Assembly (NCBI GenBank): GCA_902541245.1
Contig: CACBPT010000001.1
Location: 21,433 to 85,432, forward strand
DNA from: an uncultured SAR86 cluster bacterium
GTDB taxonomy: Bacteria; Pseudomonadota; Gammaproteobacteria; Magnimaribacterales; D2472
Direction of reading: 5' to 3'
DNA: 64,000 bases
Part shown: piece after piece, positions 17,441 to 56,004 of the stretch
Numbering within the stretch: position 1 is the stretch's first letter
Layout of the letters: each line of letters begins with the position of its first letter
The notes under the pieces: model-generated
Database searches by the model: none
Told to the model about the DNA's origin: nothing
What the model saw: the letters and a program-made list of their open reading frames with translations, nothing else
Made by a program: the position numbers and the translations under genes

Positions 17441-17530
17441 GGAGAGATGGCAGAGCGGTTGAATGCACTGGTCTTGAAAACCAGCAAACCTTCGCGGGTT
17501 TCCAGGGTTCGAATCCCTGTCTCTCCGCCA
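17441..17530 (+). tRNA. tRNA-Ser (anticodon UGA), CCA encoded
   Basis: Acceptor GGAGAGA/TCTCTCC. Anticodon stem-loop CTGGT-CTTGAAA-ACCAG. Long variable arm AAACC-TTCGC-GGGTTT. T-arm CAGGG-TTCGAAT-CCCTG. Discriminator G followed by CCA. Confidence 0.95.
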
Positions 17531-31406: not shown

Positions 31407-32645
31407 ATGAACACATTGCCTATTTACTTGGGCTACAAGTACTTTAGATCTAAAAAAGGCGCTTTCGCGTCTTTTACTTCATTAATGGCAATTGCAGGAT
31501 TATCTTTGGGGGTTGCAGCTCTAGTTATAGTTTTGTCAGTTATGAATGGATTCGAAAAGGAATTACAAACAAGAGTGCTTGGAGTAGTCCCTCAATTAGT
31601 TATTCGTTCGGATAATAATATTGATAACTATGATCAATTGCTCAGTGATATAAGTAATTCAGCCGATGTCATAGGGGTTAGTCCTTATATTGAAACCCAA
31701 GGTTTAATGAGTGCAAAAAATAGATCGAGAGGGATTTTTTTAACCGGCATAAAACCAGAAATTGAATCAACTATGTCAATTCTTCCAGAGTTTTTAATTG
31801 ATGGATCTATGAAGAGTCTTACTTCTAAAAATGGAATCATTATAGGCGCTTGGTTGTCGAGATATTTAGGAGTAGGTGTTGGCGAGACTGTAAGTATCAC
31901 AACAACAAACCTTCGTTCATCTATTTTAGGAACATTTCCAAGAACTATTACTTTAGAGGTAACGGGAATATTTGAGCTCAAAGCGGAGCTAGATCAGTCC
32001 CTTGTTTTAATTCATCATGATTTAGCAGCAAATATTATTAACCTTGAACCAAAATCAACCCAAGGAATCAGAATAAAAACAAATGATTTGTTCGCAGCAA
32101 ATTCAATTGGCTTTCAATTATTAACTCAATCTGTCTTTGACAATAATGATTATTACTTTACATCATGGCAGCAGACTCACGGAACATTATTTCAAGCTAT
32201 TAAATTAGAAAAAAGATTAATTAGTTTGATGCTTTTTTTAATTATTACAGTTGCTGCCTTCAATATCTTGTCTACTATTGTTATGACAGTTAAGACAAAA
32301 GAAAAAGAAATTGCAATTTTAAAAACTATGGGTTGTTCAAAATATCAATTAACTTTAATTTTTATTAATCTAGGTTTCATAATTGCTTTTACGGGAATAT
32401 TACTCGGTTTAATAATTGGTCTAATAGTTACACCGAACATTAATGAGCTTATTAATTTTATTGAAAATTTTAGCAATAGAAGCCTAATGGATAGTTATTT
32501 TATTAATTATTTTCCTTATGAATTTAGACTGACTCAGCTTGTATATATATGTTTATCTGTTTTGACTATGAGTTTGATTTTTTCTTATTTTCCAGCTGCA
32601 AGAGCAGCTAAATTAAAACCTGTAACAATCCTTCGCCATGAATAA
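31407..32645 (+). CDS. Lipoprotein-release ABC transporter permease (LolC/LolE family); the only one at this locus
   Basis: MacB-type fold: TM1, a periplasmic domain of about 200 aa, then an FtsX-like C-terminal 3-TM bundle. N-terminus LGYKYFRSKK. Confidence 0.85.
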   Translation: MNTLPIYLGYKYFRSKKGAFASFTSLMAIAGLSLGVAALVIVLSVMNGFEKELQTRVLGVVPQLVIRSDNNIDNYDQLLSDISNSADVIGVSPYIETQGLMSAKNRSRGIFLTGIKPEIESTMSILPEFLIDGSMKSLTSKNGIIIGAWLSRYLGVGVGETVSITTTNLRSSILGTFPRTITLEVTGIFELKAELDQSLVLIHHDLAANIINLEPKSTQGIRIKTNDLFAANSIGFQLLTQSVFDNNDYYFTSWQQTHGTLFQAIKLEKRLISLMLFLIITVAAFNILSTIVMTVKTKEKEIAILKTMGCSKYQLTLIFINLGFIIAFTGILLGLIIGLIVTPNINELINFIENFSNRSLMDSYFINYFPYEFRLTQLVYICLSVLTMSLIFSYFPAARAAKLKPVTILRHE

Positions 32646-33315
32646 GCTTGTAGCAACAGATATATTTAAGGCTTTTAAGACTGGAGCTTACCATGCTCAA
32701 GTTTTGTCTGATATATCAATTGATATTATTCAAGGGGAGACAATTGGAATTATTGGATCGTCAGGAAGTGGCAAAACAACTCTCCTTCAAATACTTGCTG
32801 GATTAGAATTTCCAGATAGTGGCGAAATTTTTTTTAATGACATTAATTTGTCAATAAATAATGCTAAGCAATTTAGTATGATGAGGAATAAATTATTTGG
32901 TTATGCATATCAATTTCACTACTTGTTAGATGATCTTACTGTTTTTGAAAACTGTAATCTTGTTTTTCAGATATCAAACAGTAAAGATATCAATAAAAAC
33001 TCACAAAAAATATTTGAAACTCTGCATGAACTTGGTATAGATAAATTACAAAATAATTATCCCTACATGCTATCAGGTGGAGAAAGACAGCGTGTTGCTA
33101 TTGCAAGAGCTATTGTTCATGAGCCTATCTTTATATTAATGGATGAACCAACAGGTAATTTGGATCATGAAAATGCAGATGTAATTCAAGATTTAACAAT
33201 AAAATTAGCGAAAGATCATAATATAGGTATTATGGTTGCAACTCATGATTTAAATTATGCTAACAAATTAGATAAAGTATTTCGCATAGAGAATGGGAGC
33301 TTAGTATCAAAGTAA
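32638..33315 (+). CDS. lolD: Lipoprotein-release ABC transporter ATPase
   Basis: Walker [10 protein letters not shown], signature [14 protein letters not shown], Walker [12 protein letters not shown]. Confidence 0.85.
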
Positions 33316-33316
33316 G

Positions 33317-33919
33317 ATGAATAATTTATTAATATCTGGGGGATGGTTTGTATGGCCTTTGCTTGTGTGTTCAATTCTGCTTATTTCCATTGTTTTAGAA
33401 AGACTTTGGTTTTTGCAAAGAAGGTTAGTTGCTCCAAAGGGTTTGCTTAGACAGGTTAAAAATCTTATCGAGAAGGACTCATTTCATCTTCAAAATCAGC
33501 AAGATATTTCAATTACATCTCATCTTGGAGACTTACTTCAACATTGTCATCAATACAAATCAAATCCAAGAGAGTTTGTTGAAGTTAAGGCTGAAGAAAA
33601 AGCTTCTGAAATTAAAATACTACTTGAACGAAATCTATCAATGTTGAGCACTATTGCAAGCATAAGTCCTTTATTAGGGCTTTTAGGAACTGTAGTAGGT
33701 ATGATTAAAGTATTTAGTAATATTGATATTAATGGTTCTGCAAACACAGATTTATTAGCAGTTGGTATATCAGAGGCTTTAATTACTACTGCGTTTGGAC
33801 TTATCATTGCTGTTCCAGCAATAATATTTTATAGATATTTCGATCAAAAGACTTTGATTTTAATGTCAATATTGCAATCAAATACATCTATTTTTCTGGA
33901 CTTTTTGTACAAAAAATGA
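33317..33919 (+). CDS. MotA/TolQ/ExbB-family proton channel
   Basis: Three TM segments with [11 protein letters not shown] and [16 protein letters not shown]. Confidence 0.8.
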
Positions 33920-34320
33920 AGTTTTACAATAATAAAGATAGAGCATTATCCGTCGAAATTACACCACTGATTGATATTGTTTTTTTACTTGTAATTTTTT
34001 TTGTCGTTACATCAAAAATTGAAACCAATCAATATCTCACCCTAGATTTACCTAAAACTGAATCTTTTGCATCTACAATATCAAACAATACACAAAACAT
34101 TATTCTGTTAGATTCAGGAAAACTCATTGTAAATGACCAAGAATTTTCTATGACAGAGATTGATCTATTAATAGCTGGTGTTAACGCAAGTTTTTCTAAA
34201 TCCGAGGTTGTAATTCTTTCAATCGAGAGTAAAGCCTATCATGAATGGGTGATCGCATTGATGGATGGCTTGCAGCAACTTGGATTTCAAAACCTGCAGA
34301 TTAAAACTTATAATGATTAG
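33916..34320 (+). CDS. ExbD/TolR-family biopolymer transport protein
   Basis: [19 protein letters not shown]-terminal TM motif. ATGA overlap with the upstream gene. Confidence 0.8.
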
Positions 34321-34322
34321 TC

Positions 34323-37079
34323 ATGAGCCCCTTAAAAAGATTATTCTCATATACTTTAAGATTTAAATTTTCATTTTTTTTAAGTATTTTAGGTTTTATT
34401 CTTTTTGCATCTGCTGATATTGCAGCTGTTGAATGGATAAGAAGAATTATTGAATTTATTAATTCCAATCAACAAGATTTCAGCATTTACCTTGTTTTAG
34501 CATTAATTTTTATCGCAGCAGGAAGGGGCTTAGGTTTCTTTGTTGGTAATTATTTCATGTCAAGAGTAGGTTTTGGAATTGTGCATGATTTAAGATCCGA
34601 GCTTTTTTCAAAATTAATTAATCTTCCAAAAACTTACTTTGACCAAAACCAGTCTGGTCAACTTATTAATAGAATTACTTTTACGACTACTCAGGTTTCT
34701 GGAGCTGCATCAAATGCAATCAAGACTCTTGTAAGGGAAGGATTTCTTCTTGTTGGATTGTTAGTATATATGCTCACATTAAATTGGAAGCTTACCTTGC
34801 TTTTGTTAATTACAACTCCCTTTATAGCATTGATTGTTTATGTAGCAGGACGAAGGCTGAGAAAATTAGCTAAGACCATTCAAACTGCTATGGGTGATGT
34901 AACTCATGTTGCATCTGAGGCTGTCGATGGGAATCTTGAGATAAAATCATTTAATGCAGAAAAATATGAAAAAGATAGATTTTTTGATGCCAATGCCTCC
35001 AATAAAAATCAAAATTTAAAATTAGAAGCCACAAGTAATCTGGCTACTCCAATTATTCAACTTTTAGTCTCAATTTCTTTATCAATAGTGGCTTATTTTG
35101 CTTTAGGCTCTCAATTAGGTATAGAGTTGAAAGCAGAGGATTTTGTTGCATTTATAACTGCTGCTGGATTAATGGCTAAACCAATTAGGCAGCTCTCAAA
35201 TATTAATGCAGTTATACAAAAGGGTTTAGCAGCAGCATTAGAGATATTTGATCAATTAGATGAAAAAGATGAAGAAGATTCAGGCAAAGTTGATTCAAGC
35301 ATCCTTGGAAATATTAAATTTTCAGATGTCAGTTTTTCATATAACTCTAAGGAATTTGTTCTGAGCAATTTAAATTTTGAAATTTCTCAAAACGAAACTG
35401 TTGCCATTGTAGGAAAGTCAGGATCTGGAAAATCAACTATCGCAAGTCTAATATCTAGGTTTTACTCTAATTACTCAGGCGATATCTCTATAGATGGTAT
35501 TAGCATTCATGATTATAAGCTATCACATCTTCGTAGATATATTTCAATTGTTAACCAATCACCAACATTATTTAATGATACCATCGAAAAAAATATTGCT
35601 TATGGAGAAAATGATATTGATCAAGATAAATTAATTGAAGCCGCTGAAATTTCAGGTTGCAATGAATTCATTTCTAAACTTCCTGAGGGTTATAAATCTG
35701 AAATTGGCGATGATGGTGTTCTTCTCTCTGGTGGTCAACGTCAGCGAATAGCCATAGCAAGAGCATTCTACAAAGATTCGCCTATTATCATTTTGGATGA
35801 GGCCACATCTGCATTAGATAATGAATCTGAATTAATAGTTCAAGAAGCAATTGAAAAGTTAATAAATAACAGGACTACAATCGTAATAGCTCACAGACTT
35901 TCTACCATTGAAAATGCCGATAAAATTTTAGTGATTGATAAAGGTTCAGTGGCTGAATCAGGTACTCACTCAATATTGTTAGATCAAGACGGAATCTACA
36001 AAAGTTTGTACCAAAATAAATTTAATGATTCAGATGACATAGACAAGTCTTCAAGAGGAATTGTAAGGCAGGAGCATCTTCCAACCTTTACAGAAGAACC
36101 TGTTGAGCAGGGTTACTTAATTGATGCATGGTATAGAAAAAGTTTTTGGCTTTATCTCTTAACACCTTTAACTTTTTTATTTACTTCTTTTATAAAATTC
36201 CGAAAAAAGTCATATATAAAAAACTCAAAAAAAGTTTGGAATTCTCCTGTTCCAATAATTGTTGTTGGAAATATTTCAATGGGTGGTACTGGAAAAACTC
36301 CATTGGTAAAATTTATTGCTTCTGAATTGTCTAAACGTGGATATAAACCAGGATTAGTAAGTAGAGGCTATGGTGGAAAATTTTCAACAACACTTGAGGT
36401 TACTAATGATAGTACTCATAAAGAAACTGGAGACGAGGCTCAGATTTTAGCCAAATTAAACCTACCATTTTTTCTTGATAAAAATAGATCAAGAGCTGCA
36501 AAGAAACTTCAAGAAAATTATGACGTTGATGTCATAATCTCAGACGATGGGCTTCAGCATTATGCAATGGGGAGAGATATTGAGATTGCTGTTATTGACG
36601 GAGTTAGAAGACTTGGTAATGGTTTTGCATTCCCAGCAGGCCCATTAAGAGAACCAAAATCAAGATTAGATGAAGTTGATTTTATCATTAATAATGGAGG
36701 TCCCACAGAAGGAGATGAAATTTTAATGACTCTAAGTCCTACTAAATTTGTTCATTTAAATTCTGGTAAAGAATATTCTGTTGATAAGTGGCCGATGCAT
36801 AATCAGGTTCATGCTCTTGCTGGAATTGGAAACCCTAATAGATTTTTTGACTTACTATTAAGGTTAGGATTTGAGTTTGATAAAAATCCATTTCCAGATC
36901 ATCATAAATACAGCAAAAGAGATTTGTATTATCTCGATCACCTCCCGATACTTATGACTGAAAAAGATGCAGCCAAATGTAAGCATTTTAAAAACTCTAA
37001 GATTTGGTATTTAAGCATTGAGTCTAAAATAGAGTCACAGTTTATTGATACGTTAGTGGAAAAATTAAATGATAGATAA
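34323..37079 (+). CDS. msbA-lpxK: Fusion protein: lipid A ABC exporter MsbA (N-terminal, about 570 aa) plus tetraacyldisaccharide 4'-kinase LpxK (C-terminal, about 320 aa)
   Basis: One uninterrupted frame. The MsbA part has GKSGSGKST, LSGGQRQR, IIILDEATSALD and IAHRLST. The LpxK part has FWLYLLTPLTFLF, VVGNISMGGTGKTP and DDGLQH. Confidence 0.85.
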   Translation: MSPLKRLFSYTLRFKFSFFLSILGFILFASADIAAVEWIRRIIEFINSNQQDFSIYLVLALIFIAAGRGLGFFVGNYFMSRVGFGIVHDLRSELFSKLINLPKTYFDQNQSGQLINRITFTTTQVSGAASNAIKTLVREGFLLVGLLVYMLTLNWKLTLLLLITTPFIALIVYVAGRRLRKLAKTIQTAMGDVTHVASEAVDGNLEIKSFNAEKYEKDRFFDANASNKNQNLKLEATSNLATPIIQLLVSISLSIVAYFALGSQLGIELKAEDFVAFITAAGLMAKPIRQLSNINAVIQKGLAAALEIFDQLDEKDEEDSGKVDSSILGNIKFSDVSFSYNSKEFVLSNLNFEISQNETVAIVGKSGSGKSTIASLISRFYSNYSGDISIDGISIHDYKLSHLRRYISIVNQSPTLFNDTIEKNIAYGENDIDQDKLIEAAEISGCNEFISKLPEGYKSEIGDDGVLLSGGQRQRIAIARAFYKDSPIIILDEATSALDNESELIVQEAIEKLINNRTTIVIAHRLSTIENADKILVIDKGSVAESGTHSILLDQDGIYKSLYQNKFNDSDDIDKSSRGIVRQEHLPTFTEEPVEQGYLIDAWYRKSFWLYLLTPLTFLFTSFIKFRKKSYIKNSKKVWNSPVPIIVVGNISMGGTGKTPLVKFIASELSKRGYKPGLVSRGYGGKFSTTLEVTNDSTHKETGDEAQILAKLNLPFFLDKNRSRAAKKLQENYDVDVIISDDGLQHYAMGRDIEIAVIDGVRRLGNGFAFPAGPLREPKSRLDEVDFIINNGGPTEGDEILMTLSPTKFVHLNSGKEYSVDKWPMHNQVHALAGIGNPNRFFDLLLRLGFEFDKNPFPDHHKYSKRDLYYLDHLPILMTEKDAAKCKHFKNSKIWYLSIESKIESQFIDTLVEKLNDR

Positions 37080-37233
37080 AGATATTCTCGATCTAATGGG
37101 ATGTATTAGGTGCAAATCTAAATTAATTGATAAGGAAAAATACCTTGAGTGCTCTAGGTGTAACATTGGTTACCCAATTGAAGAAGATATACCAAGAATG
37201 CTTGAAGAAAGAATATTTACTTTGAATGACTGA
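37069..37233 (+). CDS. Trm112/YcaR-family small zinc-ribbon protein (54 aa); not in the supplied ORF track
   Basis: My own translation: MIDKDILDLMGCIRCKSKLIDKEKYLECSRCNIGYPIEEDIPRMLEERIFTLND. It has CxxC...CxxC plus the IPxML tail. It overlaps the msbA-lpxK stop by 11 nt and the kdsB start by 8 nt. A ycaR-type gene sits between lpxK and kdsB in other gammaproteobacteria. Confidence 0.7.
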   Translation: MIDKDILDLMGCIRCKSKLIDKEKYLECSRCNIGYPIEEDIPRMLEERIFTLND

Positions 37234-37975
37234 TCGTTTTGTAATTATCGTTCCAGCTAGAGCTGCTTCGACCCGTCTACCAAATAAACCTATGATGCCA
37301 ATTCACGGCCGGTCACTCATTTCACGAATCATAGATTTAGCTCAATCATCCAATGCAATAAATTCATATATAGCAACAGATAGTATTGAGATAAAGAATC
37401 ATGCAGAATCGCTTGGTGCTAATGTTGTAATGACTTCTGACAAACATGCTTCTGGCATGGATAGAATTGCCGAAGCTGCAAAAAAAATAGATCTTCCTTT
37501 GGATACTCTAATTTTAAATTTACAAGGTGATGAACCCTTCATGCCTTTGCAAATTATCAATAAATTGCCAATGCTTGTAAGCAAAGATGCTCCTATAACA
37601 ACAGCATGTGTTAGCTTTAATGAAAATATGGATATCAACAATCCCAATGAAGTTAAAGTTGTAAGATCAAAATCAAAAAAAGCTATTTATTTTTCACGTT
37701 CAGTTATACCAAATTCTTTCACTTTTGATTATAAAAATTATTTAAAGCATTTAGGAATCTATGCTTATACCAATGAAACACTGCAAGCCCTAAGTAAATT
37801 GGACCAAACTGAAAATGAAGAAACAGAAAGACTAGAGCAATTAAGATTTTTAGATAACGGATTTAATATTTATGTCGAAGATTTTGAATTTGATGCTCCT
37901 ATCGGAATTGATACACCAGACGATTTGGAAGCAGCGATAGCTTTTGCCAAAGAAATGACTGATGATGCTAACTAA
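37226..37975 (+). CDS. kdsB: 3-deoxy-manno-octulosonate cytidylyltransferase (CMP-KDO synthetase)
   Basis: IIVPARAASTRLPNKPM, NLQGDEPF and EQLRFLDNG. Confidence 0.9.
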   Translation: MTDRFVIIVPARAASTRLPNKPMMPIHGRSLISRIIDLAQSSNAINSYIATDSIEIKNHAESLGANVVMTSDKHASGMDRIAEAAKKIDLPLDTLILNLQGDEPFMPLQIINKLPMLVSKDAPITTACVSFNENMDINNPNEVKVVRSKSKKAIYFSRSVIPNSFTFDYKNYLKHLGIYAYTNETLQALSKLDQTENEETERLEQLRFLDNGFNIYVEDFEFDAPIGIDTPDDLEAAIAFAKEMTDDAN

Positions 37976-38924
37976 CTCTTTTGGTTTGCAGGCAAATGCA
38001 AAAAACTATATCAGTATAAATTCCTTAGATGATTTATCAAAAATAGAAAATCTATATGATAAAAAATTATTGATTCTTGGTTCTGGCACCAATGTAATTC
38101 TTGATAATTATTTTGATGGAACTGTAATTAAGGTTCAATTAACAGATATAGAAAATCATAAAGATTATATTTCAGTTGGTGGGGGCGTTGATTGGGCTCA
38201 ATTAATAGAATATTGTTTAGTAAATGGACTCTATGGAATTGAAAACCTGACTCATATCCCTGGATCTGTTGGAGCAGCACCTGTTCAAAACATTGGCGCT
38301 TATGGAGTTGAAATAAGCTCTTTTATCAAAAACATTGAATGCTTTAATTTAAAAACAAAAAAGCTTGAAACTCTGAATAATGATCAATGTAAGTTCGGAT
38401 ATAGAAATTCGATATTTAAATCAAAAGACTTGGTTATTTTAAAAGTTAATTTTGTATTCGAGAAATCTTTTCAGCCTAATTTAAGTTATCCATCATTAAG
38501 TCAATTTTTAAAAGATAAATCAATTGATACATCATCTTTAACACCTAGAATGCTTTCCGAATTAATTAAGCAATTTAGAAATTCCAAGTTACCAGATCCA
38601 GAGATTGAACCAAATGTAGGAAGTATCTTTAAAAATCCTATTGTCAGCGTTAAAGATTTTGATAAAGATTTCTTAGTTGGACACAAGTGGGATCAAGGTG
38701 ATGGATATACAAAGCTTAGCTCAGCTAGGCTAATAGAGCTGATTGAATCTGACTTAATTATTCCTGATACTCTACGTTTTTATGAAAATCATTCTCTTGT
38801 GCTTATTAATAATGGCGGCGCATCTTTCAATGAAGTCATTTATTTACTTAATCAAATCAAATCTAGAATACTCAAAGAATTTAATATCAAGCTAGAAATA
38901 GAGCCTGAGATTATTTCAGTATGA
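37962..38924 (+). CDS. murB: UDP-N-acetylenolpyruvoylglucosamine reductase
   Basis: GSGTNV, IPGSVGAAPVQNIGAYG, FGYRNSIFK and GSIFKNP. Confidence 0.85.
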   Translation: MMLTNSFGLQANAKNYISINSLDDLSKIENLYDKKLLILGSGTNVILDNYFDGTVIKVQLTDIENHKDYISVGGGVDWAQLIEYCLVNGLYGIENLTHIPGSVGAAPVQNIGAYGVEISSFIKNIECFNLKTKKLETLNNDQCKFGYRNSIFKSKDLVILKVNFVFEKSFQPNLSYPSLSQFLKDKSIDTSSLTPRMLSELIKQFRNSKLPDPEIEPNVGSIFKNPIVSVKDFDKDFLVGHKWDQGDGYTKLSSARLIELIESDLIIPDTLRFYENHSLVLINNGGASFNEVIYLLNQIKSRILKEFNIKLEIEPEIISV

Positions 38925-40062: not shown

Positions 40063-41799
40063 TTAATCAGTGCTGTTATCAATCCACTCATTGATATATT
40101 TTTCCAGAGTATCAAGGGGTAAGGCTCCTCTTTTTAAAACCTCATGATGAAAGTCTTTAATATCAAAGCTGTCTCCAAATGCTAATTCTGCATTTGCTTT
40201 TAGTTCCAATATTTTTAGTTGTCCGATCTTATATGCAAGTGCTTGACCAGGCCAATTAATGTATCTGTCAACTTCATTCAAAACATCTTGTTTTGTTTTA
40301 GCTGAATTATTAAGAAAATAATTTATAGCATCTTGTCTGCTCCAATCAAAGTAGTGCATTCCCGTATCAACAACAAGCCTTATTGCTCTCCACATGTCAT
40401 AGGTAAGCTGACCAAATTTTGAGTATGGATCTTGATATAGACCTAAATCATAACCAAGTCTCTCGCTATAAAGTCCCCAACCCTCAACATAAGCAGTTAT
40501 ACCTCCATATTTTCTAAAATTTGGTAAATCTAGTTCCATTGCCAGCGCAATTTGCAAATGATGTCCAGGCATCGCTTCATGAACACTGAGAACTTCAATT
40601 TCATATTTAGGTCTCACTTCGGGTCGATAAAGATTTACAAAGTAATATCCTGCACGAGAACCATCTGCGGCTGGACGTTGATAATAAGCAGTTGTCGTAT
40701 CGGGAGCACTCTCCATAGGAATGGGTTTTAGTCCATATGGCATTGATGGAAGAACTTTAAATAGTTTCACTAATTCAGGATCAATTCTTTTTGATGTAGC
40801 AAGGTATGCTTCAAATAAATCTTCTGAAGTATCATAGTAAAACTTGGGATTAGTACGTAAATCATCTAAAAAAGCTTTAAACGAACCATCCCATTTAACT
40901 TCCTTTATTACTGCTTCCATTTCCTCTCTAATCCTATCAACCTCTGCTAATCCAATTTCATGAATCTTTAGTGGAGTAAGATTAGTGGTAGTAAATTTCC
41001 TTGCCAAGAATTCATAATATTCTTTGCCATTTTTAATTTCTTTTATACCTATGGATGTTCTGCAAGCAGGCAAATAATCTTCTTTAAAAAATGTATGAAG
41101 ACGAGAATAAGCAGGAATCACTTTAGTTTTTATGACATCTAGAGCTTTTAATTGTATTTCCTCAGACGAATCTATCTCATTATTTATGTTTTCAAAGACT
41201 CTATAGAAAGGGCTATCTTTAGGCTCGACAAAAACTTGTAATTCAATTTGTTTATAAACTTTTTCCATAAGAAATCTTGGTGGAACAATCCCTTGATCAA
41301 TGCCAATTCTTGCTTTTTCAATTGCATCATCAATTAACATATTTATTTTTGAAAGTCTTTCAATCCAATCTAAAAAATTTTGTTTATTTCTTAGAGGAAT
41401 TATGCTCGTTGTTTCGTGTTTTAATTGAATACCGCCCCTGTGACTAAATGGCATTAAAAATTTTTTAAATGAATGAGCTTCTATTGAATTTTCATATTGT
41501 TTTTTAAAAAGAAGATAATTAACTTGATTCTCTTCAGTAAAATTTTTTGTGTCAAATTCTTCCAATTGATTCAACACTTGTAACTCAATCTGATGATTTG
41601 AATAAATTTTTTCAATTGAAGTATCCGACCATTTTGTGTTGTTGGTAAGGTCTCCCATGCTGGAAGCATAGACTGGATTATCAGCTATCATTCTTTCCCA
41701 TTCTGAATTAAGGAGAGAATTAAATTGAACCTGATGATTTTCTGTTGAACACCCTATTAGTAATATTAATAAAGCATAGAGTGAAATGCTTTTCATCAC
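40063..41799 (-). CDS. DUF885-family lipoprotein (putative metallopeptidase-like)
   Basis: Lipobox LLIGC after MMKSISLYALLI. HEAMPGHHLQ motif. 578 aa. Confidence 0.75.
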   Translation of the reverse strand: MMKSISLYALLILLIGCSTENHQVQFNSLLNSEWERMIADNPVYASSMGDLTNNTKWSDTSIEKIYSNHQIELQVLNQLEEFDTKNFTEENQVNYLLFKKQYENSIEAHSFKKFLMPFSHRGGIQLKHETTSIIPLRNKQNFLDWIERLSKINMLIDDAIEKARIGIDQGIVPPRFLMEKVYKQIELQVFVEPKDSPFYRVFENINNEIDSSEEIQLKALDVIKTKVIPAYSRLHTFFKEDYLPACRTSIGIKEIKNGKEYYEFLARKFTTTNLTPLKIHEIGLAEVDRIREEMEAVIKEVKWDGSFKAFLDDLRTNPKFYYDTSEDLFEAYLATSKRIDPELVKLFKVLPSMPYGLKPIPMESAPDTTTAYYQRPAADGSRAGYYFVNLYRPEVRPKYEIEVLSVHEAMPGHHLQIALAMELDLPNFRKYGGITAYVEGWGLYSERLGYDLGLYQDPYSKFGQLTYDMWRAIRLVVDTGMHYFDWSRQDAINYFLNNSAKTKQDVLNEVDRYINWPGQALAYKIGQLKILELKANAELAFGDSFDIKDFHHEVLKRGALPLDTLEKYINEWIDNSTD

Positions 41800-43421
41800 A
41801 TATTAGGGTAATTCGGACCACCGGTACCTTCGGGCGTTACCCAAGTAATATTTTGAGATGGATCTTTAATATCGCATGTTTTGCAATGAACGCAATTTTG
41901 TCCGTTGATAACAAATTTTGGTTCGTTATCTTTTTCCACAACTTCGTAAACACCAGCTGGACAGTATCTTTGTGCAGGTTCGTCATATATAGGCAGATTT
42001 TGAAGTATTGGTATGGTTGAGTCTTTAAGTGTCAGGTGACAAGGCTGATCTTCTTCGTGATAGGTATTGGAAAGAAATACAGAACTTAGCTTATCAAAAC
42101 TGATTTTACCATCAGGCTTTGGATATTCTATTTTTGGCATATCAGCAGCAGGTTTCATGCAAGCATAGTCTGGAGTTGTATGTCTGAGAGTAAAAGGGAG
42201 TTTACCTCTAAATATCAATTGATCTATTGCGTTGAAAGCAGCTCCAATTAGAGCACCAAATTTATGGAACATGGGTCCAAAGTTTCTTGATTTGTAGAGC
42301 TCTTCATGAATCCAACTTGATTTAACTAAATCATTGAATTGAAGATCACTATCATTATCAATATTTTTAAAAATGGCTTCTGCAGCAAGCATTCCAGATT
42401 TCATAGCGGTATGGGAACCTTTAATTTTTGAAAAAATCAGTGTTCCAGCATTGTCGCCTACTAAAACACCACCTGGAAATTCCATGCTTGGTAGAGATTG
42501 AAGACCACCTTTAATGAGTGCTCTAGCTCCATAAGTAATTCTTTCTCCTCCTTCTAAATACCGTCTGATTGATGGATGAGTTTTCCAAGTTTGAAATTCA
42601 TCATATGGACTAAGGTGAGGATTTTCATAATCTAGTGGAACGACATATCCCAAATATACTTCATTATTATCTGCATGATAGAGGTAAGATCCAGCAGGGG
42701 TATTTTTAGCACTAGGCCAGCCATTCGTGTGGATAACAAGACCTTCTTGATGCACCTCATCCTTAATTTTCCAAATTTCCTTAAATCCAATTCCATAATG
42801 TTGCGGGTCTTTATCCTTATCTAACTCAAATTTTGATATTAATTGTTTACCAAGATGGCCTCTGCAGCCTTCACCAAATATTGTATATTTAGCTTTAATA
42901 TCTATCCCTGCTTCGTATCCTGCTTTTTGTTCACCGTTTAAACCAACACCCATTTCTCCAGTTCTAACGCCAACAACTTTATCTCCTTCGTAGAGGATCT
43001 CACTTGCAGGAAAACCGGGAAATATTTCAACTCCCAAATCTTCTGCCTGAGTTGCGAGCCATCGACAAAGATTTGCAAGACTGGCTACATAATTTCCATG
43101 ATTATTCATGGGTGGCATTACAAATGAAGGAATAGGCAAGCTGAATTTTTCAAACATAAACATTAACTTATCTTTTTTAACTGGAACATTGAGAGGGCAT
43201 TCTTTTTCTTTCCAATCTGGAATAAGTTCATTTAAAGCTGTAGGTTGAAATACATTTCCTGAAAGTATATGAGCACCTATTTCAGAACCTTTTTCAAGAA
43301 GACATATTTCTAGAGATTTATCATTTTCTTTCGCCAGTTGAGCAAGTTTTATGGCAGCGCTGAGGCCAGATGGACCTCCGCCAACGATGACGACATCGTA
43401 TTCCATAACTTCTCTTTCCAT
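41796..43421 (-). CDS. Electron-transfer flavoprotein:ubiquinone oxidoreductase (ETF-QO)
   Basis: YDVVIVGGGPSGLSAAIKL. C-terminal 4Fe-4S region CPAGVYE...CVHCKTCDIKDP. Strong SD AGAGGGAG upstream of the ATG at 43421. Confidence 0.92.
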   Translation of the reverse strand: MEREVMEYDVVIVGGGPSGLSAAIKLAQLAKENDKSLEICLLEKGSEIGAHILSGNVFQPTALNELIPDWKEKECPLNVPVKKDKLMFMFEKFSLPIPSFVMPPMNNHGNYVASLANLCRWLATQAEDLGVEIFPGFPASEILYEGDKVVGVRTGEMGVGLNGEQKAGYEAGIDIKAKYTIFGEGCRGHLGKQLISKFELDKDKDPQHYGIGFKEIWKIKDEVHQEGLVIHTNGWPSAKNTPAGSYLYHADNNEVYLGYVVPLDYENPHLSPYDEFQTWKTHPSIRRYLEGGERITYGARALIKGGLQSLPSMEFPGGVLVGDNAGTLIFSKIKGSHTAMKSGMLAAEAIFKNIDNDSDLQFNDLVKSSWIHEELYKSRNFGPMFHKFGALIGAAFNAIDQLIFRGKLPFTLRHTTPDYACMKPAADMPKIEYPKPDGKISFDKLSSVFLSNTYHEEDQPCHLTLKDSTIPILQNLPIYDEPAQRYCPAGVYEVVEKDNEPKFVINGQNCVHCKTCDIKDPSQNITWVTPEGTGGPNYPNM

Positions 43422-43461
43422 CGATTGCTCCCTCTTTTTTTAGTGGTAAAAAAACATTACA

Positions 43462-43487
43462 ATTATATCCGCATAAACCTTATAATT
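43462..43487. promoter_or_regulatory. Back-to-back candidate -10 boxes in the ETF-QO / etfBA divergent spacer
   Basis: TATAAT on the + strand at 43481-43486 and on the - strand at 43467-43462. Together they form a 7-bp inverted repeat AATTATA-N13-TATAATT. The -35 elements are weak. Confidence 0.3.
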
Positions 43488-43560
43488 AATGATATTATAT
43501 CAAAAATTAATAATAAATTATAACTATTTAAAATAATATCAGATTAAAAGAGCTCAATCT

Positions 43561-44313
43561 ATGAAAATATTAGTTCCAATCAAGCGTGTAGTAGATTATA
43601 ACGTGAAAGTAAGACCCTTAGGCGATCAATCTGATGTAGATCTGAATAATGTCAAAATGGCGATGAATCCATTTTGTGAAATTGCTGTTGAAGAAGCTGT
43701 GAGACTGAAAGAGGCAGGGACTGCAACTGAAGTTGTGGCTGTGACTGTTGGTAAATCAGACTCTCAGGAACAACTTAGAACTGCACTAGCACTGGGAGCT
43801 GATAGAGCCATATTAGCAGAAACAGATTCACTTTTAGAACCTTTAGCAATAGCGAAAGTTCTCTCAAAGATTATCGAAGAAGAATCTCCGCAATTAGTAA
43901 TTTTAGGCAAACAGGCCATTGATGGAGATAACAATCAAACGGGTCAAATGCTTGCTGCTATGTTGAATTATTCCCAGGCAACATTTGCATCCGAAGTTAA
44001 AATTGATGGAGATTCAGCATCTGTAACTCGAGAAATAGATGGCGGCCTCCAAACAATTAAGGTTTCTCTTCCAGCTATTATTACAACCGATTTAAGACTT
44101 AATGAGCCGAGATATGCATCTCTGCCAAATATTATGAAAGCCAAGAAGAAAGAATTGGATGTAAAATCGATTGGAGAGATGGGAGTTGATATAAATAATA
44201 GAATGGAATTGTTGTCCGTTGAACTTCCTGCATCTAGACAAGAGGGCATTAAAGTTGAATCAGTTGAGGACTTAGTTAGTAAATTGAAAGAAGAAGCAAA
44301 GGTGATTTCATGA
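43561..44313 (+). CDS. etfB: Electron transfer flavoprotein beta subunit
   Basis: [18 protein letters not shown] and [20 protein letters not shown]. Confidence 0.92.
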
Positions 44314-45239
44314 GTATATTAGTTATAGCAGAGCACGATAACGCAAACTTAAAGCCTGCAACGTTAAATACCGTTGCTGCGGCTAAAGAATTGAATGGTG
44401 AAGTGCACCTTCTTATTTCTGGTAATTCCTGTCAAAGTGTTGCTGATGAAGCAAGCGGAGTTGAAGGTATTTCCAAGATTCTTATCTCTGACAATGCTGC
44501 TTATGAAAATCATTTAGCTGAAAGTACAGCTAATCTAATTAAATCAGTTGCTAGCAATTATTCTCACATACTTGCAGCAGCAACAACATTTGGAAAAAAT
44601 GTTTTACCGAGACTCAGCGCATTGCTAGATGTGCAACAAATATCAGAAATTACAGAAATTGTTTCTGAAGATACTTTTAAAAGACCTATATATGCAGGAA
44701 GTTGTATTGCAACAGTCAAATCAAATGATTCGATCAAAGTAATTACAGTCAGAGCTACAGCCTTTGATCCTGTGAATTCATCTGGCGGTTCTGCATCCAT
44801 TGAAAATATTGATGCTGATAACATTTCTGATTTAACATCCTTTGTCGGAGAAGAGATTGCTCAGAGTGATAGACCAGAGCTAACAGCAGCTAGTATTGTA
44901 ATCTCAGGTGGAAGAGGCATGCAATCAGGTGATAATTTCCATCTCCTGGAGGCAATTGCAGATAAGCTTGGTGCAGCTGTTGGTGCTTCCAGGGCTGCTG
45001 TTGATGCAGGTTTTGTTCCCAATGATTACCAAGTTGGCCAAACGGGTAAAATTGTTGCACCAGATTTATACATAGCTGTTGGTATTAGCGGTGCCATACA
45101 GCATTTAGCTGGAATGAAAGATTCAAAGGTAATTGTGGCTATAAATAAAGATGAAGATGCGCCTATTTTTCAGGTTGCTGATTATGGATTGGTGGCAGAC
45201 CTGTTTAATGCTTTGCCAGAGCTTTCAGAACAACTCTAA
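44310..45239 (+). CDS. etfA: Electron transfer flavoprotein alpha subunit
   Basis: [47 protein letters not shown] overlap with etfB. Confidence 0.92.
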
Positions 45240-45240
45240 C

Positions 45241-46347
45241 CTACTGATTTGAAGTAATATTTAATCCTAGCCTTTCAATATTTTGACTGGCTGATCCATT
45301 AATTAGCTCACATTCTTTTGCAAGCAGGCAATATCTCCATAAAACGTAATCTTTATCCACTCCCGCACCTCCGTGCAGGTGCTGAGCAGAATAACTTATT
45401 TTATGACAAGCATTTCCAGCCCAAATTTTTGACACTAATGCGTCATTTTCGCAATCAAGATTTGTATTCAGATTTGTTGATGCTTGTTGATTAACTAATC
45501 TCAAGCATTCAAGTTCAATAAAACAGTCTGCTGCCCTGTGTGAAACTGCTTGAAAAGTTCCAATAACTCTGCCAAATTGCTCTCGTTCAGATGTGTAAGA
45601 TGCAATTAAAGATGTCATTTTGTTAGTTACCCCAAGAGCTATATAACTTCTCATCACCATATTTATTTGTAACAAGTATCTTAAAGTTTCCAGTCCACGT
45701 CCTTCTTGATGAACTATATTAGATCGTTCGATTGACACATTATTTAGCTCTACTTTAAATAAAGGGGAGTTAGCAGTAGAAGTTAGTTGAGTTAATTTAA
45801 CTTCATCAGTTTTCACAAGGACGAGGATCACACCTTTATTTGAAGATGCGGAAATCAAAATACCCTTAGCTAAAGACGATATTTCAGAAAGATATTTTGA
45901 ACCATTAATAATTACTTTATCACCATCAAAAACTGCTGTAGTAGTTGGATTTTCTGGATCATGGTTTAGCGGTTCTAAAATAGCTGACGTATATATTTCA
46001 CCTTTAGTTATAGACGAAACAATAGATTGATGATTATCATTTTTACTAAATTTTTGAAGTGTTTGAGCAACATCAACTAAACATCCAGTTAAACTCAATG
46101 GAACAGCATAAAAACCTAGACACTCAAAAAGAATTCCTAGATCATATAAATCTTCGCCACTACCATTTAATTTTTCATTGATACCAAGTCCTAAATATCC
46201 ATTAGTTGCAAGAAAATCATAAAGGCTTTCGTCATGCTTAAACTCATTATCAAATTCCTTTAGTTTTTCTGAAGAGCATTTTTCTGAGAATATTTTGTTC
46301 AGAGATTCTCTTATCTCTCGTTGATGACTTAATTCTGAAAAGTCCAC
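45241..46347 (-). CDS. Acyl-CoA dehydrogenase family protein, 'small' partner of an adjacent pair
   Basis: ACAD C-terminal helical domain with FQAVSHRAADC and QHLHGGAGVDKDY. GTG start shares one nt with the upstream TAG (TAGTG). Confidence 0.8.
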   Translation of the reverse strand: MDFSELSHQREIRESLNKIFSEKCSSEKLKEFDNEFKHDESLYDFLATNGYLGLGINEKLNGSGEDLYDLGILFECLGFYAVPLSLTGCLVDVAQTLQKFSKNDNHQSIVSSITKGEIYTSAILEPLNHDPENPTTTAVFDGDKVIINGSKYLSEISSLAKGILISASSNKGVILVLVKTDEVKLTQLTSTANSPLFKVELNNVSIERSNIVHQEGRGLETLRYLLQINMVMRSYIALGVTNKMTSLIASYTSEREQFGRVIGTFQAVSHRAADCFIELECLRLVNQQASTNLNTNLDCENDALVSKIWAGNACHKISYSAQHLHGGAGVDKDYVLWRYCLLAKECELINGSASQNIERLGLNITSNQ

Positions 46348-47528
46348 TAGCGACTCCTTGGCATGAATAAACCTGCCATCGCTATAATATCTCTTTGAAC
46401 TTCATTGGTGCCACCTCCAAAAGTTAATATAGATGCTGTTCGGTACATTCTTTCAAGGCGCGCATTTAGAATTTTTAATTCCGAATCATTTTTTAAGATA
46501 CTTAGCTCACCCATAATTTCCATCAAAAGTCTATAAGCCTCAATAAAAAATTCAGATCCGTAAACTTTAGCGACTGAAGCCTCTGCCATATTGAGCTGAT
46601 CAGACTCCATAATCCATGTTTGTTTCCAGCAAATTAGTTTTAATGCTTCAATTCCGGAGTGAATTTGAGCAAAATTTTGTTTTACCCATGACAAATCAGT
46701 TAAAGATTGATCATTACCAATTTCAGTATTTTGAGCTAATTCTAAAACGTTCCTATAAAGTTCTTCAACAGGACCATGATTAACTAAAGCAAGTCGCTCT
46801 AAGTTTAATTGATTAGTTATTAGTGACCATCCTTGATTCACTTCACCAACTAAATGTGAATATGGGACTTTGATATTTTCATAGAAAGTAGCATTAGTTC
46901 TTACATCGCCTAAAGTGTTAATTGCAGTCAAAGAAAAACCTGGGTCATTTGTTGGAACTATAAACATTGAAATTCCCTTGTGATTCTTGGCTTCAAAATC
47001 AGTTCTTGCTGCAAGCCATATATAGTCTGAAAAGTTTGCTAGACTAGTCCACATTTTTTGACCATTTATAAGATATCCATCTTTTTCTTTAATAGCTTTT
47101 GTTTGTAGAGAGGCCAAATCAGTCCCAGAATTTGGTTCAGAGTAACCAATACCAAATATTAATTTTCCTTGTAAAATTTTTGTTGCTATTTCTTCTTTGG
47201 CCCAATCAGATCCATACTCTGCAATCATCGGTCCCACTGATTCTGTTGTTAGAAATGGGAACGGAAAGCCAGTTCGCATTACAGTCTCAACAAAGATGTA
47301 TTGCTCAATTGGACTTAGCTCCTTACCACCAAACTCTTTTTTCCAACTAAGGCCTATCCATCCATCCTCGCCCATGGTGAGCATAGCTTTTTTAAATTCT
47401 GGGCCGCCACCTTCAAAATATTCTGGATTATTTAGCTCTGTTTTTAACTCAGGTGTAATTAATCCTTTGAAGTATTCTTGCAGCTCATCTTTTAATTTAG
47501 CTTGTTGTGGATTTAATTGTATTAGCAT
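46347..47528 (-). CDS. Acyl-CoA dehydrogenase, 'large' partner of an adjacent pair
   Basis: GYSEPNSGTDLASLQTKA, NGQKMWTS and FGGGTNEVQRDIIA. Confidence 0.88.
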   Translation of the reverse strand: MLIQLNPQQAKLKDELQEYFKGLITPELKTELNNPEYFEGGGPEFKKAMLTMGEDGWIGLSWKKEFGGKELSPIEQYIFVETVMRTGFPFPFLTTESVGPMIAEYGSDWAKEEIATKILQGKLIFGIGYSEPNSGTDLASLQTKAIKEKDGYLINGQKMWTSLANFSDYIWLAARTDFEAKNHKGISMFIVPTNDPGFSLTAINTLGDVRTNATFYENIKVPYSHLVGEVNQGWSLITNQLNLERLALVNHGPVEELYRNVLELAQNTEIGNDQSLTDLSWVKQNFAQIHSGIEALKLICWKQTWIMESDQLNMAEASVAKVYGSEFFIEAYRLLMEIMGELSILKNDSELKILNARLERMYRTASILTFGGGTNEVQRDIIAMAGLFMPRSR

Positions 47529-53659: not shown

Positions 53660-53668
53660 ATGGTGAAG

Positions 53669-53674
53669 TATAAT
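53669..53674 (+). promoter_or_regulatory. Candidate -10 box (TATAAT) for the ACAD-ACAD-gap transcription unit
   Basis: Perfect TATAAT 45 nt upstream of the preferred ACAD start (53714). Any -35 would lie inside the first codons of mfd. Confidence 0.3.
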
Positions 53675-53713
53675 TTGCGCCTAAATAATAATCTAAAAAA
53701 CAGGAACACTAAC

Positions 53714-54886
53714 ATGGATATAAGTTTTTCAGAACAAGATCTTCAATTTCAAGAAGAGATCAGAGCTGGTTTAAATGGAGCAGAGTATCCTGCTCATGTA
53801 AAAGAAAAGCAGGAAAAAGGAATTAATTTTTCTAAAGAAGATGTAATTGATTTTCATAAATTTCTATCAAGTAAAGGTTGGATGGGTTATAACTGGCCAG
53901 TTGAATATGGAGGAACTGGATGGTCTCCTGTTCAAATTTATCTTTTCCTTAATGAGCTAGCTCTTGCTCAATGTCCAACGATTCTTCCTTTTGGCGTAGG
54001 TATGGTTGGACCGGTAATATATACATTTGGCACTCAGGAGCAAAAAGATAGATTCCTTCCAGATATTCTTAATTTTGATACTTGGTGGTGTCAAGGTTAT
54101 TCAGAACCAGGTTCAGGGTCTGATTTAGCTTCACTTAAAACTAAAGCTGTTTTAGAGGGAGATCATTATGTTGTTAATGGTTCAAAAACTTGGACAACTC
54201 TTGCCCAAAATGCTGATTGGATATTTTGCTTAGTTAGAACTGAAACCACGCAAAAGAAACAAGAGGGCATTTCTTTCCTATTAATTGATATGAACACACC
54301 AGGTATTGAAGTCAAACCAATTATTACAATTGATGGTGATCATGAGGTCAATTCTGTTTTCTTCACAGATGTGAAAGTGCCAGCTGATCAGCTAATTGGT
54401 GAAGAAGGTAAAGGCTGGACCTATGCTAAATTTTTATTAGCACATGAGAGATTTGGAATTGCAGGAGTACCAGTAGTAAAAGTACAAATTGATAGATTAA
54501 AAAATCTTACTGCTGAATATGATGACGCTGATTTAAATAAAAAAATAGCTGAATTAGAGATTGATTTAGAGGCTTTGGAATTTACAGAGCTTAGAACATT
54601 AGCTGCAATTGCTGAAGGTGGTCACCCAGGAGCTGAATCTTCGATTTTAAAAATTCGAGGTACTGAAATTCAACAAAGATTAACTGAACTTTATGTTGAA
54701 GCTGCCGGACAATACATACTTCCATACGAGGGACCAGATGGCTTTGAGTCAAATAGGACTCCATCAGGACCGGAATATGCTAGTTCATCTGTTGCTCAAT
54801 ATTTAAATTATAGAAAAACATCGATTTATGGTGGCAGTAACGAGATCCAAAAAAATATTATCGCTAAAGCAATCTTAGGAGTTTAA
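53714..54886 (+). CDS. Acyl-CoA dehydrogenase, 'large' partner of second adjacent pair
   Basis: GYSEPGSGSDLASLKTKA, NGSKTWTT and YGGSNEIQKNIIA. I prefer MDISFSEQDLQF (53714) over the track start at 53660, which abuts the mfd start codon. Confidence 0.88.
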   Translation: MDISFSEQDLQFQEEIRAGLNGAEYPAHVKEKQEKGINFSKEDVIDFHKFLSSKGWMGYNWPVEYGGTGWSPVQIYLFLNELALAQCPTILPFGVGMVGPVIYTFGTQEQKDRFLPDILNFDTWWCQGYSEPGSGSDLASLKTKAVLEGDHYVVNGSKTWTTLAQNADWIFCLVRTETTQKKQEGISFLLIDMNTPGIEVKPIITIDGDHEVNSVFFTDVKVPADQLIGEEGKGWTYAKFLLAHERFGIAGVPVVKVQIDRLKNLTAEYDDADLNKKIAELEIDLEALEFTELRTLAAIAEGGHPGAESSILKIRGTEIQQRLTELYVEAAGQYILPYEGPDGFESNRTPSGPEYASSSVAQYLNYRKTSIYGGSNEIQKNIIAKAILGV

Positions 54887-54888
54887 GT

Positions 54889-56004
54889 ATGAACTTAAAT
54901 TATTCTGATGAGCAAAATATGCTCAGAGAACAAGTATTGAAGTTTTGCGAAACAAACTATGATTTTATAGATAGAGAAAAGATTTTAGAATCTGATATTG
55001 GTTTTAGTAAGGATAATTGGCAACAATTTGCTGAGCTTGGTTGGCTAGCTGTTCCATTTAAGGAAGAAAATGGAGGGTTTAATTTTGGACCCGTTGAACT
55101 AACTGTATTATTTGAAGAATTTGGTAAAGCACTTGTAGTTGAGCCATATCTAAGTTCTGTTGTGATGAGTGGAACGATTATAGAAAATTCAAATCATAAA
55201 AATAAGTCGTCAATCATTGAAAAGATAATTTCTGGTGAACACCAAATGTCAGTTGCCTATGCAGAACCAAATATTGGATATAAATTTTTTGATTGCTATG
55301 CTTCTACATCTGTTAGTAACAATATTTTATCTCTTAATGGAACTAAATCTCTTGTCTTAAATGCAGGCAATGCCAATCAATTTATTGTTCTTGCAAAGCA
55401 TGAAGGTTTATCAGCTTTAATAATGGTTGATGCAGAGGTTGATGGATTGTCAATTCAAAGCTTTAAAACTATAGATGGTCAAACATGCGGTGAATTAACT
55501 TTTGAAAATGTTTTGATAGATACAGATTCTATAATAGCGTCCGGTGATGATGCGGAAGCAATCTTTAATAAAATGATGGATCTAGCAATATTGTGTATAA
55601 GCGCTGAGGCAGTGGGCGCAATGAATGCGTCATATGTGAAAACAGTTCAATATACCAAAGAGCGTGAACAATTTTCTCAACCGATCAGTAATTTTCAAGT
55701 GCTGCAACATAGAATGGTGGATATGTTCATCGAAACTGAATTGACAAAGTCACTATTAATCAAAGCAACCTTACAACTTGACTCAAATGATCCTGATGCA
55801 AAAAGTACTATTTCAGCTCTGAAAGTTCAGGTTGGAAAAGCGGGACGTCTAATTGGTCAGAATGCTGTTCAGCTTCATGGGGGCATGGGAGTAAGTAATG
55901 AAATGTCTATCGGCCATTACTTAAAAAGATTTACAGCCATAGACTCTATGTTTGGTAATACTTCACACCATATAAATAAATATCAAGCAAAGCAAAAGGA
56001 ATGA
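54889..56004 (+). CDS. Acyl-CoA dehydrogenase family protein, 'small' partner of second pair
   Basis: FQVLQHRMVDM and QLHGGMGVSNEMSIGHY. 371 aa. Confidence 0.8.
   Translation: MNLNYSDEQNMLREQVLKFCETNYDFIDREKILESDIGFSKDNWQQFAELGWLAVPFKEENGGFNFGPVELTVLFEEFGKALVVEPYLSSVVMSGTIIENSNHKNKSSIIEKIISGEHQMSVAYAEPNIGYKFFDCYASTSVSNNILSLNGTKSLVLNAGNANQFIVLAKHEGLSALIMVDAEVDGLSIQSFKTIDGQTCGELTFENVLIDTDSIIASGDDAEAIFNKMMDLAILCISAEAVGAMNASYVKTVQYTKEREQFSQPISNFQVLQHRMVDMFIETELTKSLLIKATLQLDSNDPDAKSTISALKVQVGKAGRLIGQNAVQLHGGMGVSNEMSIGHYLKRFTAIDSMFGNTSHHINKYQAKQKE

Follow-up and report, generated by a model that had tools for sequence, protein, structure and literature searches.

A single open reading frame in SAR86 and other Gammaproteobacteria predicted to encode an MsbA–LpxK fusion protein

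Can the lipid A exporter MsbA and the lipid A kinase LpxK, which are separate proteins in Escherichia coli, be made as a single polypeptide? This question is raised by a 64,000-nt stretch of DNA from an uncultured SAR86 cluster bacterium (GenBank assembly GCA_902541245.1, contig CACBPT010000001.1, positions 21,433 to 85,432 of the forward strand), which is called the window hereafter and whose numbering is used throughout. An earlier note on this DNA, made from the letters alone, had described one uninterrupted 918-codon msbA–lpxK open reading frame (ORF) and had contrasted it with the adjacent but separate cistrons of E. coli. Both statements proved correct. The window ORF starts with ATG and runs through 918 codons plus a stop without any break, and ORF call, Pfam and NCBIfam agreed on its composition: three Pfam domains (ABC_membrane, ABC_tran and, with 3.5e-94, LpxK) lie on one chain, and both NCBIfam equivalog cut-offs were passed, one by each half. 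In the E. coli genome, msbA occupies 966621–968369 and lpxK 968366–969352, so that the two cistrons overlap by 4 nt. On the sequence evidence set out below, we consider it likely, with a probability of roughly 0.85, that the fusion is translated as one 918-aa polypeptide (~100 kDa) with both essential activities. The ORF and the features of its MsbA half are as follows.

34323..37079, + strand: msbA::lpxK fused ORF (ORF call, three Pfam domains, TIGR02203 and TIGR00682 above cut-off)
34377..35174, + strand: MsbA transmembrane domain (TMD), ABC_membrane, aa 19–284 (Pfam, alignment to E. coli MsbA)
35361..35810, + strand: core of the MsbA nucleotide-binding domain (NBD), ABC_tran, aa 347–496 (Pfam, motifs)
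35412–35438, + strand: Walker A GKSGSGKST, aa 364–372 (translation)

Residues 1 to about 569 had been read in the earlier note as a complete MsbA-type half-transporter, and the MsbA equivalog model, Pfam and end-to-end alignment to solved MsbAs all supported this assignment. TIGR02203 scored 629.3 bits with the full protein and 631.5 bits with aa 1–569 alone (cut-off 602), while the enterobacterial MsbA model NF008381 stayed below its cut-off (534 vs 867 bits), as expected for a distant gammaproteobacterium. Window aa 5–567 align to residues 14–580 of the 582 residues of E. coli MsbA with 38% identity, which places the native MsbA end at about aa 569 (nt 36029), and the half closes with the MsbA-like C-terminal end GIYKSLYQNKF. 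The best PDB match was 9bd6 with 545 bits, aa 4–567 corresponding to E. coli MsbA 13–580 of 582. Walker A is followed, up to aa 528, by the signature LSGGQRQR, the Walker B motif IIILDEATSALD (ILDEATSALD) and the H-loop IAHRLST. In an alignment of 127 fused proteins, K370, Q412, S469–Q472, D492–E493 and H524 of the MsbA half were invariant. The same held for R68, and R138 and R289 were nearly invariant; these three residues align to R78, R148 and K299 of E. coli MsbA, positions which we take to be the lipid-A-contacting residues of MsbA structures. AlphaFold2, run on a 127-sequence alignment, modelled long transmembrane (TM) helices over aa 15–312.

The features of the LpxK half are listed here.

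36117..36221, + strand: LpxK N-terminus, aa 599–633, with the LIDAWY motif, the aromatic-rich hydrophobic helix FWLYLLTPLTFLFTSFIKF and the start of a basic stretch (model, alignment to Aquifex LpxK)
36153..37067, + strand: LpxK kinase domain, PF02606, aa 611–915 (Pfam, NCBIfam, alignments)
36267–36302, + strand: LpxK P-loop GNISMGGTGKTP, VVGNISMGGTGKTP in the translation, aa 649–660 (translation, alignments)
aa 703–705, + strand: LpxK GDE (alignments)
36543–36560, + strand: LpxK DDGLQH, aa 741–746 (translation, alignments)

The LpxK equivalog model TIGR00682 gave 247.6 bits with the full protein and 251.3 bits with aa 599–918 alone, against a cut-off of 91.95, and PF02606 gave 316 bits against a cut-off of 27, with profile positions 3–327 of 328 covered. 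Structures 4EHW and 4EHX were matched in the PDB with 1e-26. Identity to E. coli LpxK was 40% with the key residues aligned; since W6 of the E. coli enzyme aligns to W603, LpxK Met1 falls on aa 598, which is Tyr598 in the window. In Aquifex aeolicus LpxK, the catalytic residues comprise the P-loop K/T, D99/E100, the Walker B residues D138/D139, H143 and H261 (PMC6286764). The GGTGKTP, GDE, DDGLQH and PDHH motifs of the window protein align to their counterparts in A. aeolicus and E. coli LpxK, and the residues equivalent to A. aeolicus K51/T52, D99/E100, D138/D139 and H143 have been retained. Among the 127 fused proteins, G654–P660, E705, D741–H746 and D859–H860 were invariant and D704 nearly so. 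The claim that the same frame continues as a full LpxK was thus substantiated, and all motifs that had been listed for either half are present in the translation. By these comparisons, both halves are complete family members with their catalytic residues kept.

The remaining two frames across the msbA/lpxK junction are full of stops. Under a chance model with 33% GC and an expected stop frequency of 0.075 per codon, a 918-codon open frame would arise with p ~8e-32; the 29-codon spacer between the halves, taken alone, would stay open with p ~0.10, to be multiplied by 1/3 for being in frame. The fusion question is settled by recurrence in other genomes, rather than by the chance calculation. A sequencing or assembly indel might have abolished the stop of msbA and the start of lpxK in this one assembly, given that a single-base indel at an E. 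coli-like 4-nt gene overlap could join two frames and that frameshifts were seen elsewhere in the gene in the long-read metagenome-assembled genome (MAG) that holds locus L050 and, after the LpxK helix, in protein P0122. However, the window is SAR86 chromosomal DNA, and its protein is 98% identical to the counterpart in the single-cell genome AG-453-K07. When each GTDB species was scanned with one genome, 59 SAR86-type loci emerged, 55 of them complete, every one of which (55/55) runs in one stop-free frame through the Walker A of the ABC part and the P-loop of LpxK. These 55 loci, at 65–98% identity, fall into the subclades SAR86A, B and E, and stem from single-cell genomes and MAGs, including both short-read and long-read assemblies. 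More than 120 further metagenomic protein clusters (ENA, JGI, NCBI, Tara, Logan) are exactly 918 aa long with the same three Pfam domains, and the junction recurs in distant lineages, too. Moreover, it consists of a 29-codon linker under selection and not of a 1-nt slip. Judged by this recurrence, an artefact confined to one assembly is already refuted and keeps only a vanishing probability.

Some irregular members of the set were inspected individually. Over-long match spans at L043, L047, L050 and L057 (+1.2–1.6 kb) were considered as insertions or split genes and rejected, the cause being that the upstream LolD-like ATPase cross-matches the NBD in tblastn. At L050 (5257–7958 of FRAM18_bin311), the MsbA part is spread over five frame segments with at least four frameshifts, and the junction and LpxK lie in one frame; these frameshifts, whether assembly errors or signs of a decaying gene, are not evidence against the fusion. 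P0122 (651 aa) was examined as an unfused SAR86 form and discarded, as its frame stays open over linker and LpxK helix and shifts only afterwards.

The alignments to E. coli MsbA and LpxK delimited the linker to aa 570–598 (nt 36030–36116), precisely the polar stretch of about 29 residues that the earlier note had proposed. It consists of two parts.

36030..36077, + strand: variable polar half of the linker, aa 570–585, SDDIDKSSRGIVRQEH (alignment, pN/pS, model)
36078..36116, + strand: conserved acidic half of the linker, aa 586–598, LPTFTEEPVEQGY (alignment, pN/pS)

Across SAR86, the linker measures 27–29 aa and changes in length solely by whole-codon indels. The ratio of nonsynonymous to synonymous polymorphism (pN/pS) was ~0.6 (about 0.61) for aa 570–585, which are nearly free to vary, and for aa 586–598 it was 0.10 within the clade of the window and 0.27 within the SAR86A-like clade, compared with 0.05–0.19 for TMD, NBD and kinase core, all of these ratios being approximate because synonymous sites are saturated. 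By this measure, aa 586–598 are under purifying selection and about as constrained as the catalytic domains. The acidic half carries a SAR86-specific motif, P-[TE]-[FY]-x-[ED]-E, which is absent outside SAR86, where the linkers are 30–55 aa long and of low complexity; all fusions resume after the linker with an LpxK N-terminus of the form '(L/V)xxAWY'. AlphaFold2 returned aa 569–596 as coil without secondary structure at a predicted local distance difference test score (pLDDT) of ~30 (<50). The constraint and the preserved frame support the view that the linker is translated and partly constrained. Predicted peptides spanning it are FNDSDDIDK (MsbA end plus linker) and QEHLPTFTEEPVEQGYLIDAWYR (linker plus LpxK start).

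The fusion also imposes a condition on the membrane topology of LpxK. The AlphaFold2 model (mean pLDDT 80.6, predicted template modelling score, pTM, 0.50; MsbA TMD and NBD mostly of good confidence, LpxK at 86–95) showed a short helix at aa 598–604, followed by a single continuous helix at 608–633 (pLDDT 86–91) and not by a hairpin. In alignment, the latter corresponds to the A. aeolicus LpxK N-terminal helix, and it is succeeded by the basic patch RKKSYIKNSKK, which extends to aa 637 (nt 36233). The NBD at the end of an N-in/C-in half-transporter is cytoplasmic, and LpxK depends on ATP, so a helix between the two cannot cross the bilayer once. The argument of the earlier note that the helix is no simple bilayer-spanning anchor is thus sound, but its conclusion is already the published view: crystal structures of A. 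aeolicus LpxK led to the proposal of an amphipathic, interfacial N-terminal helix with a basic patch, and the helix is required for activity (PMC6286764). The fusion supports this interfacial-helix view as an independent line of evolutionary evidence. In the window, the best 19-mer of the helix (aa 608–626, nt 36144–36200) has an octanol-scale free energy (dG) of -14.6 kcal/mol, a more favourable value than those of all MsbA TM helices in this protein. The median for the best 19-mer is ~-14 kcal/mol in SAR86 vs -6 kcal/mol in the non-SAR86 fusions, in which the helix is less aromatic and is interrupted by K/R.

Several observations weigh against a single polypeptide with an interfacial helix. 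The SAR86 LpxK helix is aromatic-rich and matches a true TM segment in hydrophobicity, so that standard predictors would probably class it as transmembrane, and its interfacial placement rests on topology logic together with the Aquifex structures. An ATG is found at codon 586 in 12 of the 55 SAR86 loci and at the ancestral LpxK start, codon 598, in three of the 55, and some SAR86 lineages could also produce free LpxK. A disordered linker, as predicted here, would in addition be open to proteases. The last two points are what one would look for if the single ORF gave rise to two proteins, with LpxK freed by internal initiation or by proteolytic cleavage in the linker, and an AGGAG within the window's linker (nt 36071–36075) adds to them, as do the recurrence of AGGAG in 10/55 loci and of a 4-mer core resembling a Shine–Dalgarno sequence in 33/55. 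However, no start codon lies at a usable distance downstream of the window's AGGAG, and this element is not conserved, for which reasons it was rejected as an internal initiation site. No in-frame ATG, GTG or TTG was present between codons 563 and 625 in the window or its clade, and no in-frame start codon in or near the linker was conserved across the 55 SAR86 loci. In the window genome, canonical initiation cannot yield a free LpxK with the helix on which its activity depends (PMC6286764). The search for initiation signals ahead of LpxK that the earlier note had recommended thus produced an AGGAG without a usable or conserved start codon. Furthermore, conserved frame and length as well as purifying selection on the distal linker are not needed for internal initiation. 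We regard the formation of two proteins as quite improbable, although LpxK may be released by proteolysis.

An observation of its own concerns the ancestral LpxK start position. In three SAR86B-like loci (L022, L025, L028) and in P0122, a Met is located exactly there (…S-M-VVDAWY or G-M-LLDAWY), and this residue looks like a vestige of a former lpxK initiation site; other SAR86 clades exhibit F, Y or L.

Turning from SAR86 to the wider distribution, an exhaustive search of 50%-identity representatives revealed at least 16 further fused clusters, each covered by a single alignment across both halves at 32–50% identity. With a profile built from 14 distant fused clusters, the best 120 hits were fused in all cases (120/120, 954–1031 aa). 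The combination of ABC_membrane, ABC_tran and LpxK, for which a database search had been suggested, therefore occurs in SAR86 and other Gammaproteobacteria. Carriers named outside SAR86 are MAGs labelled 'Gammaproteobacteria', 'Pseudomonadales' and 'Candidatus Azotimanducaceae'. Several fused genes reside on contigs of 2.5–6.5 Mb, including the complete chromosome CP121333.1 (L063), and the fusion is thus not an oddity of genome streamlining. A neighbour-joining (NJ) tree of the MsbA domain recovered three fused clades with bootstrap values of 100% for SAR86 (93% with P0121), 100% for a 'Pseudomonadales' group and 86% for a third group. Links between these clades received ≤31%, monophyly of all fused forms appeared in 0/100 bootstraps, and fused and unfused MsbAs interleaved without resolved structure. 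The gene fusion is genuine and, most likely, vertically inherited.

Three proteins of the wider set deserve mention. P0365 and P0382 are fused and ~60% identical to gammaproteobacterial members, and NCBI assigns their source MAGs to 'Flavobacterium sp.' and 'Cyclobacteriaceae bacterium', probably owing to mis-binned contigs. P0186 (1146 aa), which diverges most among the fused proteins, bears an extra C-terminal tail of ~180 aa after LpxK that is rich in A/E/K/P and of low complexity.

In the window and at two of the distant loci (L062, L063), the fusion is embedded in the gene order exbB–exbD–msbA::lpxK–ycaR–kdsB…murB, a synteny that SAR86 has in common with the 'Pseudomonadales' group. The window genes are listed below.

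33317–33919, + strand: exbB-like gene, immediately upstream of the fusion
33916–34320, + strand: exbD-like gene, ending 2 nt before the ATG of the fusion
37069..37233, + strand: YcaR/Trm112p-like ORF of 54 aa with CxxC...CxxC (Trm112p 20.2 bits, just below the cut-off of 22)
37226–37975, + strand: kdsB, downstream of the fusion
37962–38924, + strand: murB, downstream of kdsB

The YcaR-like ORF shares 11 nt with the lpxK end and 8 nt with the kdsB start, thereby filling an apparent gap of 146 nt between these genes; it is easily overlooked, and its position is that of ycaR in E. coli and in L062/L063. Directly upstream of exbB–exbD, a LolC/E-like permease (FtsX plus MacB_PCD) and a LolD-like ATPase were found at 31407–33315 (+). 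Genes for lipoprotein sorting, ExbBD, lipopolysaccharide (msbA::lpxK, kdsB) and murB hence lie closely packed on the same strand as a single envelope cluster. Neither a further msbA or lpxK nor any waaA or lpxL turned up when the whole window was surveyed. Elsewhere in the window, an 87-nt tRNA at 17441–17527 (+) was the sole Rfam hit (60 bits), its length suggesting a long variable arm; an outer-membrane beta-barrel protein of 1069 aa with an N-terminal CarboxypepD_reg domain is encoded at 759–3968 (+); and acyl-CoA dehydrogenase genes at 45241–47528 and 53660–56004 lie downstream of an ETF/ETF-QO set (41796–45239).

The dense packing bears on how the fusion arose. Probably, the msbA stop was lost in an operon whose two genes were already abutting or overlapping, like those of E. 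coli, and the extra 29 aa would have been recruited from the spacer or added later. The fusion might then be a selectively neutral by-product of operon compaction that was kept because it is harmless. Such an origin would be in line with the 4-nt overlap in E. coli and with the cluster of the window, in which neighbouring genes abut or overlap throughout; the almost free evolution of the proximal linker points in the same direction, and the interleaving of fused and unfused MsbAs is compatible with repeated gain and loss. Against this stand the retention of the fusion across 32–50% identity and in unstreamlined genomes of 4–6.5 Mb, the constraint on the distal linker in SAR86, and the stability of the fused state within each of the three well-supported clades (86–100% bootstrap). 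We consider neutrality possible, though on balance doubtful.

If the ORF is translated as one polypeptide, as we favour, the following arrangement can be envisaged. The MsbA homodimer would carry two LpxK domains per transporter, each on the C-terminus of a cytoplasmic NBD. A disordered tether of ~29 aa (30–55 aa in other lineages) would loop back to the membrane, where the LpxK helix and the basic patch would insert into the cytoplasmic leaflet, the helix being interfacial or deeply embedded but not bilayer-spanning. The kinase would stay cytoplasmic and convert the disaccharide-1-phosphate precursor into lipid IVA by phosphorylation. The advantage would likely be that the last indispensable step of lipid A synthesis and the exporter are necessarily co-expressed 1:1 and co-localised. 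In E. coli, msbA and lpxK are co-transcribed, and a pathway model estimated ~432 LpxK and 206 MsbA molecules per cell from the shared transcript (PMC4412817). The proposal of the earlier note that the fusion ties an early lipid A step to the exporter stands with regard to the tether; the word 'early' has to be dropped. Nor does LpxK directly precede MsbA: WaaA, LpxL, LpxM and core addition act between LpxK and MsbA in E. coli (PMC6286764, PMC4412817). Owing to these intervening steps, tethering alone does not amount to a direct substrate hand-off.

A bolder proposal is that LpxK is held at the lateral gate of MsbA and passes its product, or a minimal lipopolysaccharide, to the flippase, with the acidic motif serving for docking. 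LpxK is the last step that is indispensable in the Raetz pathway, and E. coli can survive while exporting lipid IVA (PMC6286764). The strong constraint on the acidic motif would suit such a function, and the unusually hydrophobic SAR86 helix is compatible with packing on the MsbA TMD. However, kdsB is part of the same operon, so that 3-deoxy-D-manno-oct-2-ulosonic acid (Kdo) is made and WaaA presumably acts in between; the implied Kdo addition between LpxK and MsbA renders direct channelling less likely. In addition, the motif is absent from the non-SAR86 fusions, whose longer linkers are unconserved, and in the model it has a pLDDT of 30–50 and lacks structure, pTM reaching only 0.50 and no interface being predicted. 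We rate channelling as unlikely. The same low rating applies to its most elaborate form, a putative synthesis–export machine with the LpxK pair at the cytoplasmic-leaflet entry of MsbA, the SAR86 helix on the TMD and the acidic motif on a basic surface. If it existed, lipid IVA or its immediate derivatives would arise at the flippase entrance, and the cycles of kinase and transporter could be coupled.

Comparison with known systems puts the predicted single polypeptide into context. The E. coli pair msbA–lpxK (b0914–b0915) provides the same two essential functions, the same gene order and the downstream ycaR–kdsB, yet it encodes polypeptides of 582 and 328 aa, whereas the window lacks the intervening stop, has Tyr598 in place of LpxK Met1 and has gained the 29-aa linker. 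The upstream neighbours differ as well, being ycaI in E. coli and exbB–exbD in the window. A. aeolicus LpxK (4EHW, 4EHX, 4EHY, 4ITL, 4LKV) shares fold family, P-loop, GDE, DDG..QH, DH and the N-terminal helix, but it is a stand-alone enzyme with a free N-terminus, while the helix in the window has its N-terminus tied to a cytoplasmic NBD. All characterised LpxK enzymes have their membrane helix at the N-terminus; in the window it lies within the chain. The window protein resembles MsbA structures (9BD6; E. coli 3B5W/5TV4 and others) as a full-length half-transporter with all ATPase motifs, but in all solved MsbAs just a few residues follow the NBD, and no C-terminal enzyme domain is present where the window MsbA carries LpxK. 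A precedent for an enzyme fused to a type-IV ABC half-transporter is offered by the peptidase-containing ABC exporters (bacteriocin/NHLP; C39 peptidase plus ABC_membrane plus ABC_tran), and these families appeared among the NCBIfam matches of the window protein. Their enzyme is N-terminal and acts on the cargo immediately before transport, unlike the C-terminal, flexibly tethered enzyme of the window, which is placed several steps upstream of export.

Both domains are textbook material, and neighbouring genes of an operon commonly fuse in evolution. We found no description of an MsbA–LpxK fusion in the literature searched. All three domains are already assigned to fused proteins in precomputed Pfam tables, and naming sources say just 'MsbA'; under this label, lpxK can be mistaken for absent in pathway reconstructions for SAR86 and its relatives. 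MsbA as well as LpxK is essential and an antibiotic target, and the fusion represents a ready-made construct for structural work on lipid A enzymes relative to MsbA. It also constitutes a natural topology test, because the LpxK helix must work without crossing the bilayer. SAR86 are abundant marine bacteria, and the architecture is not peculiar to the window genome but widespread among marine Gammaproteobacteria. The fusion thus suggests that a fixed 1:1 complement of LpxK beside the exporter is tolerated, or even favoured, in a large group of ocean bacteria.

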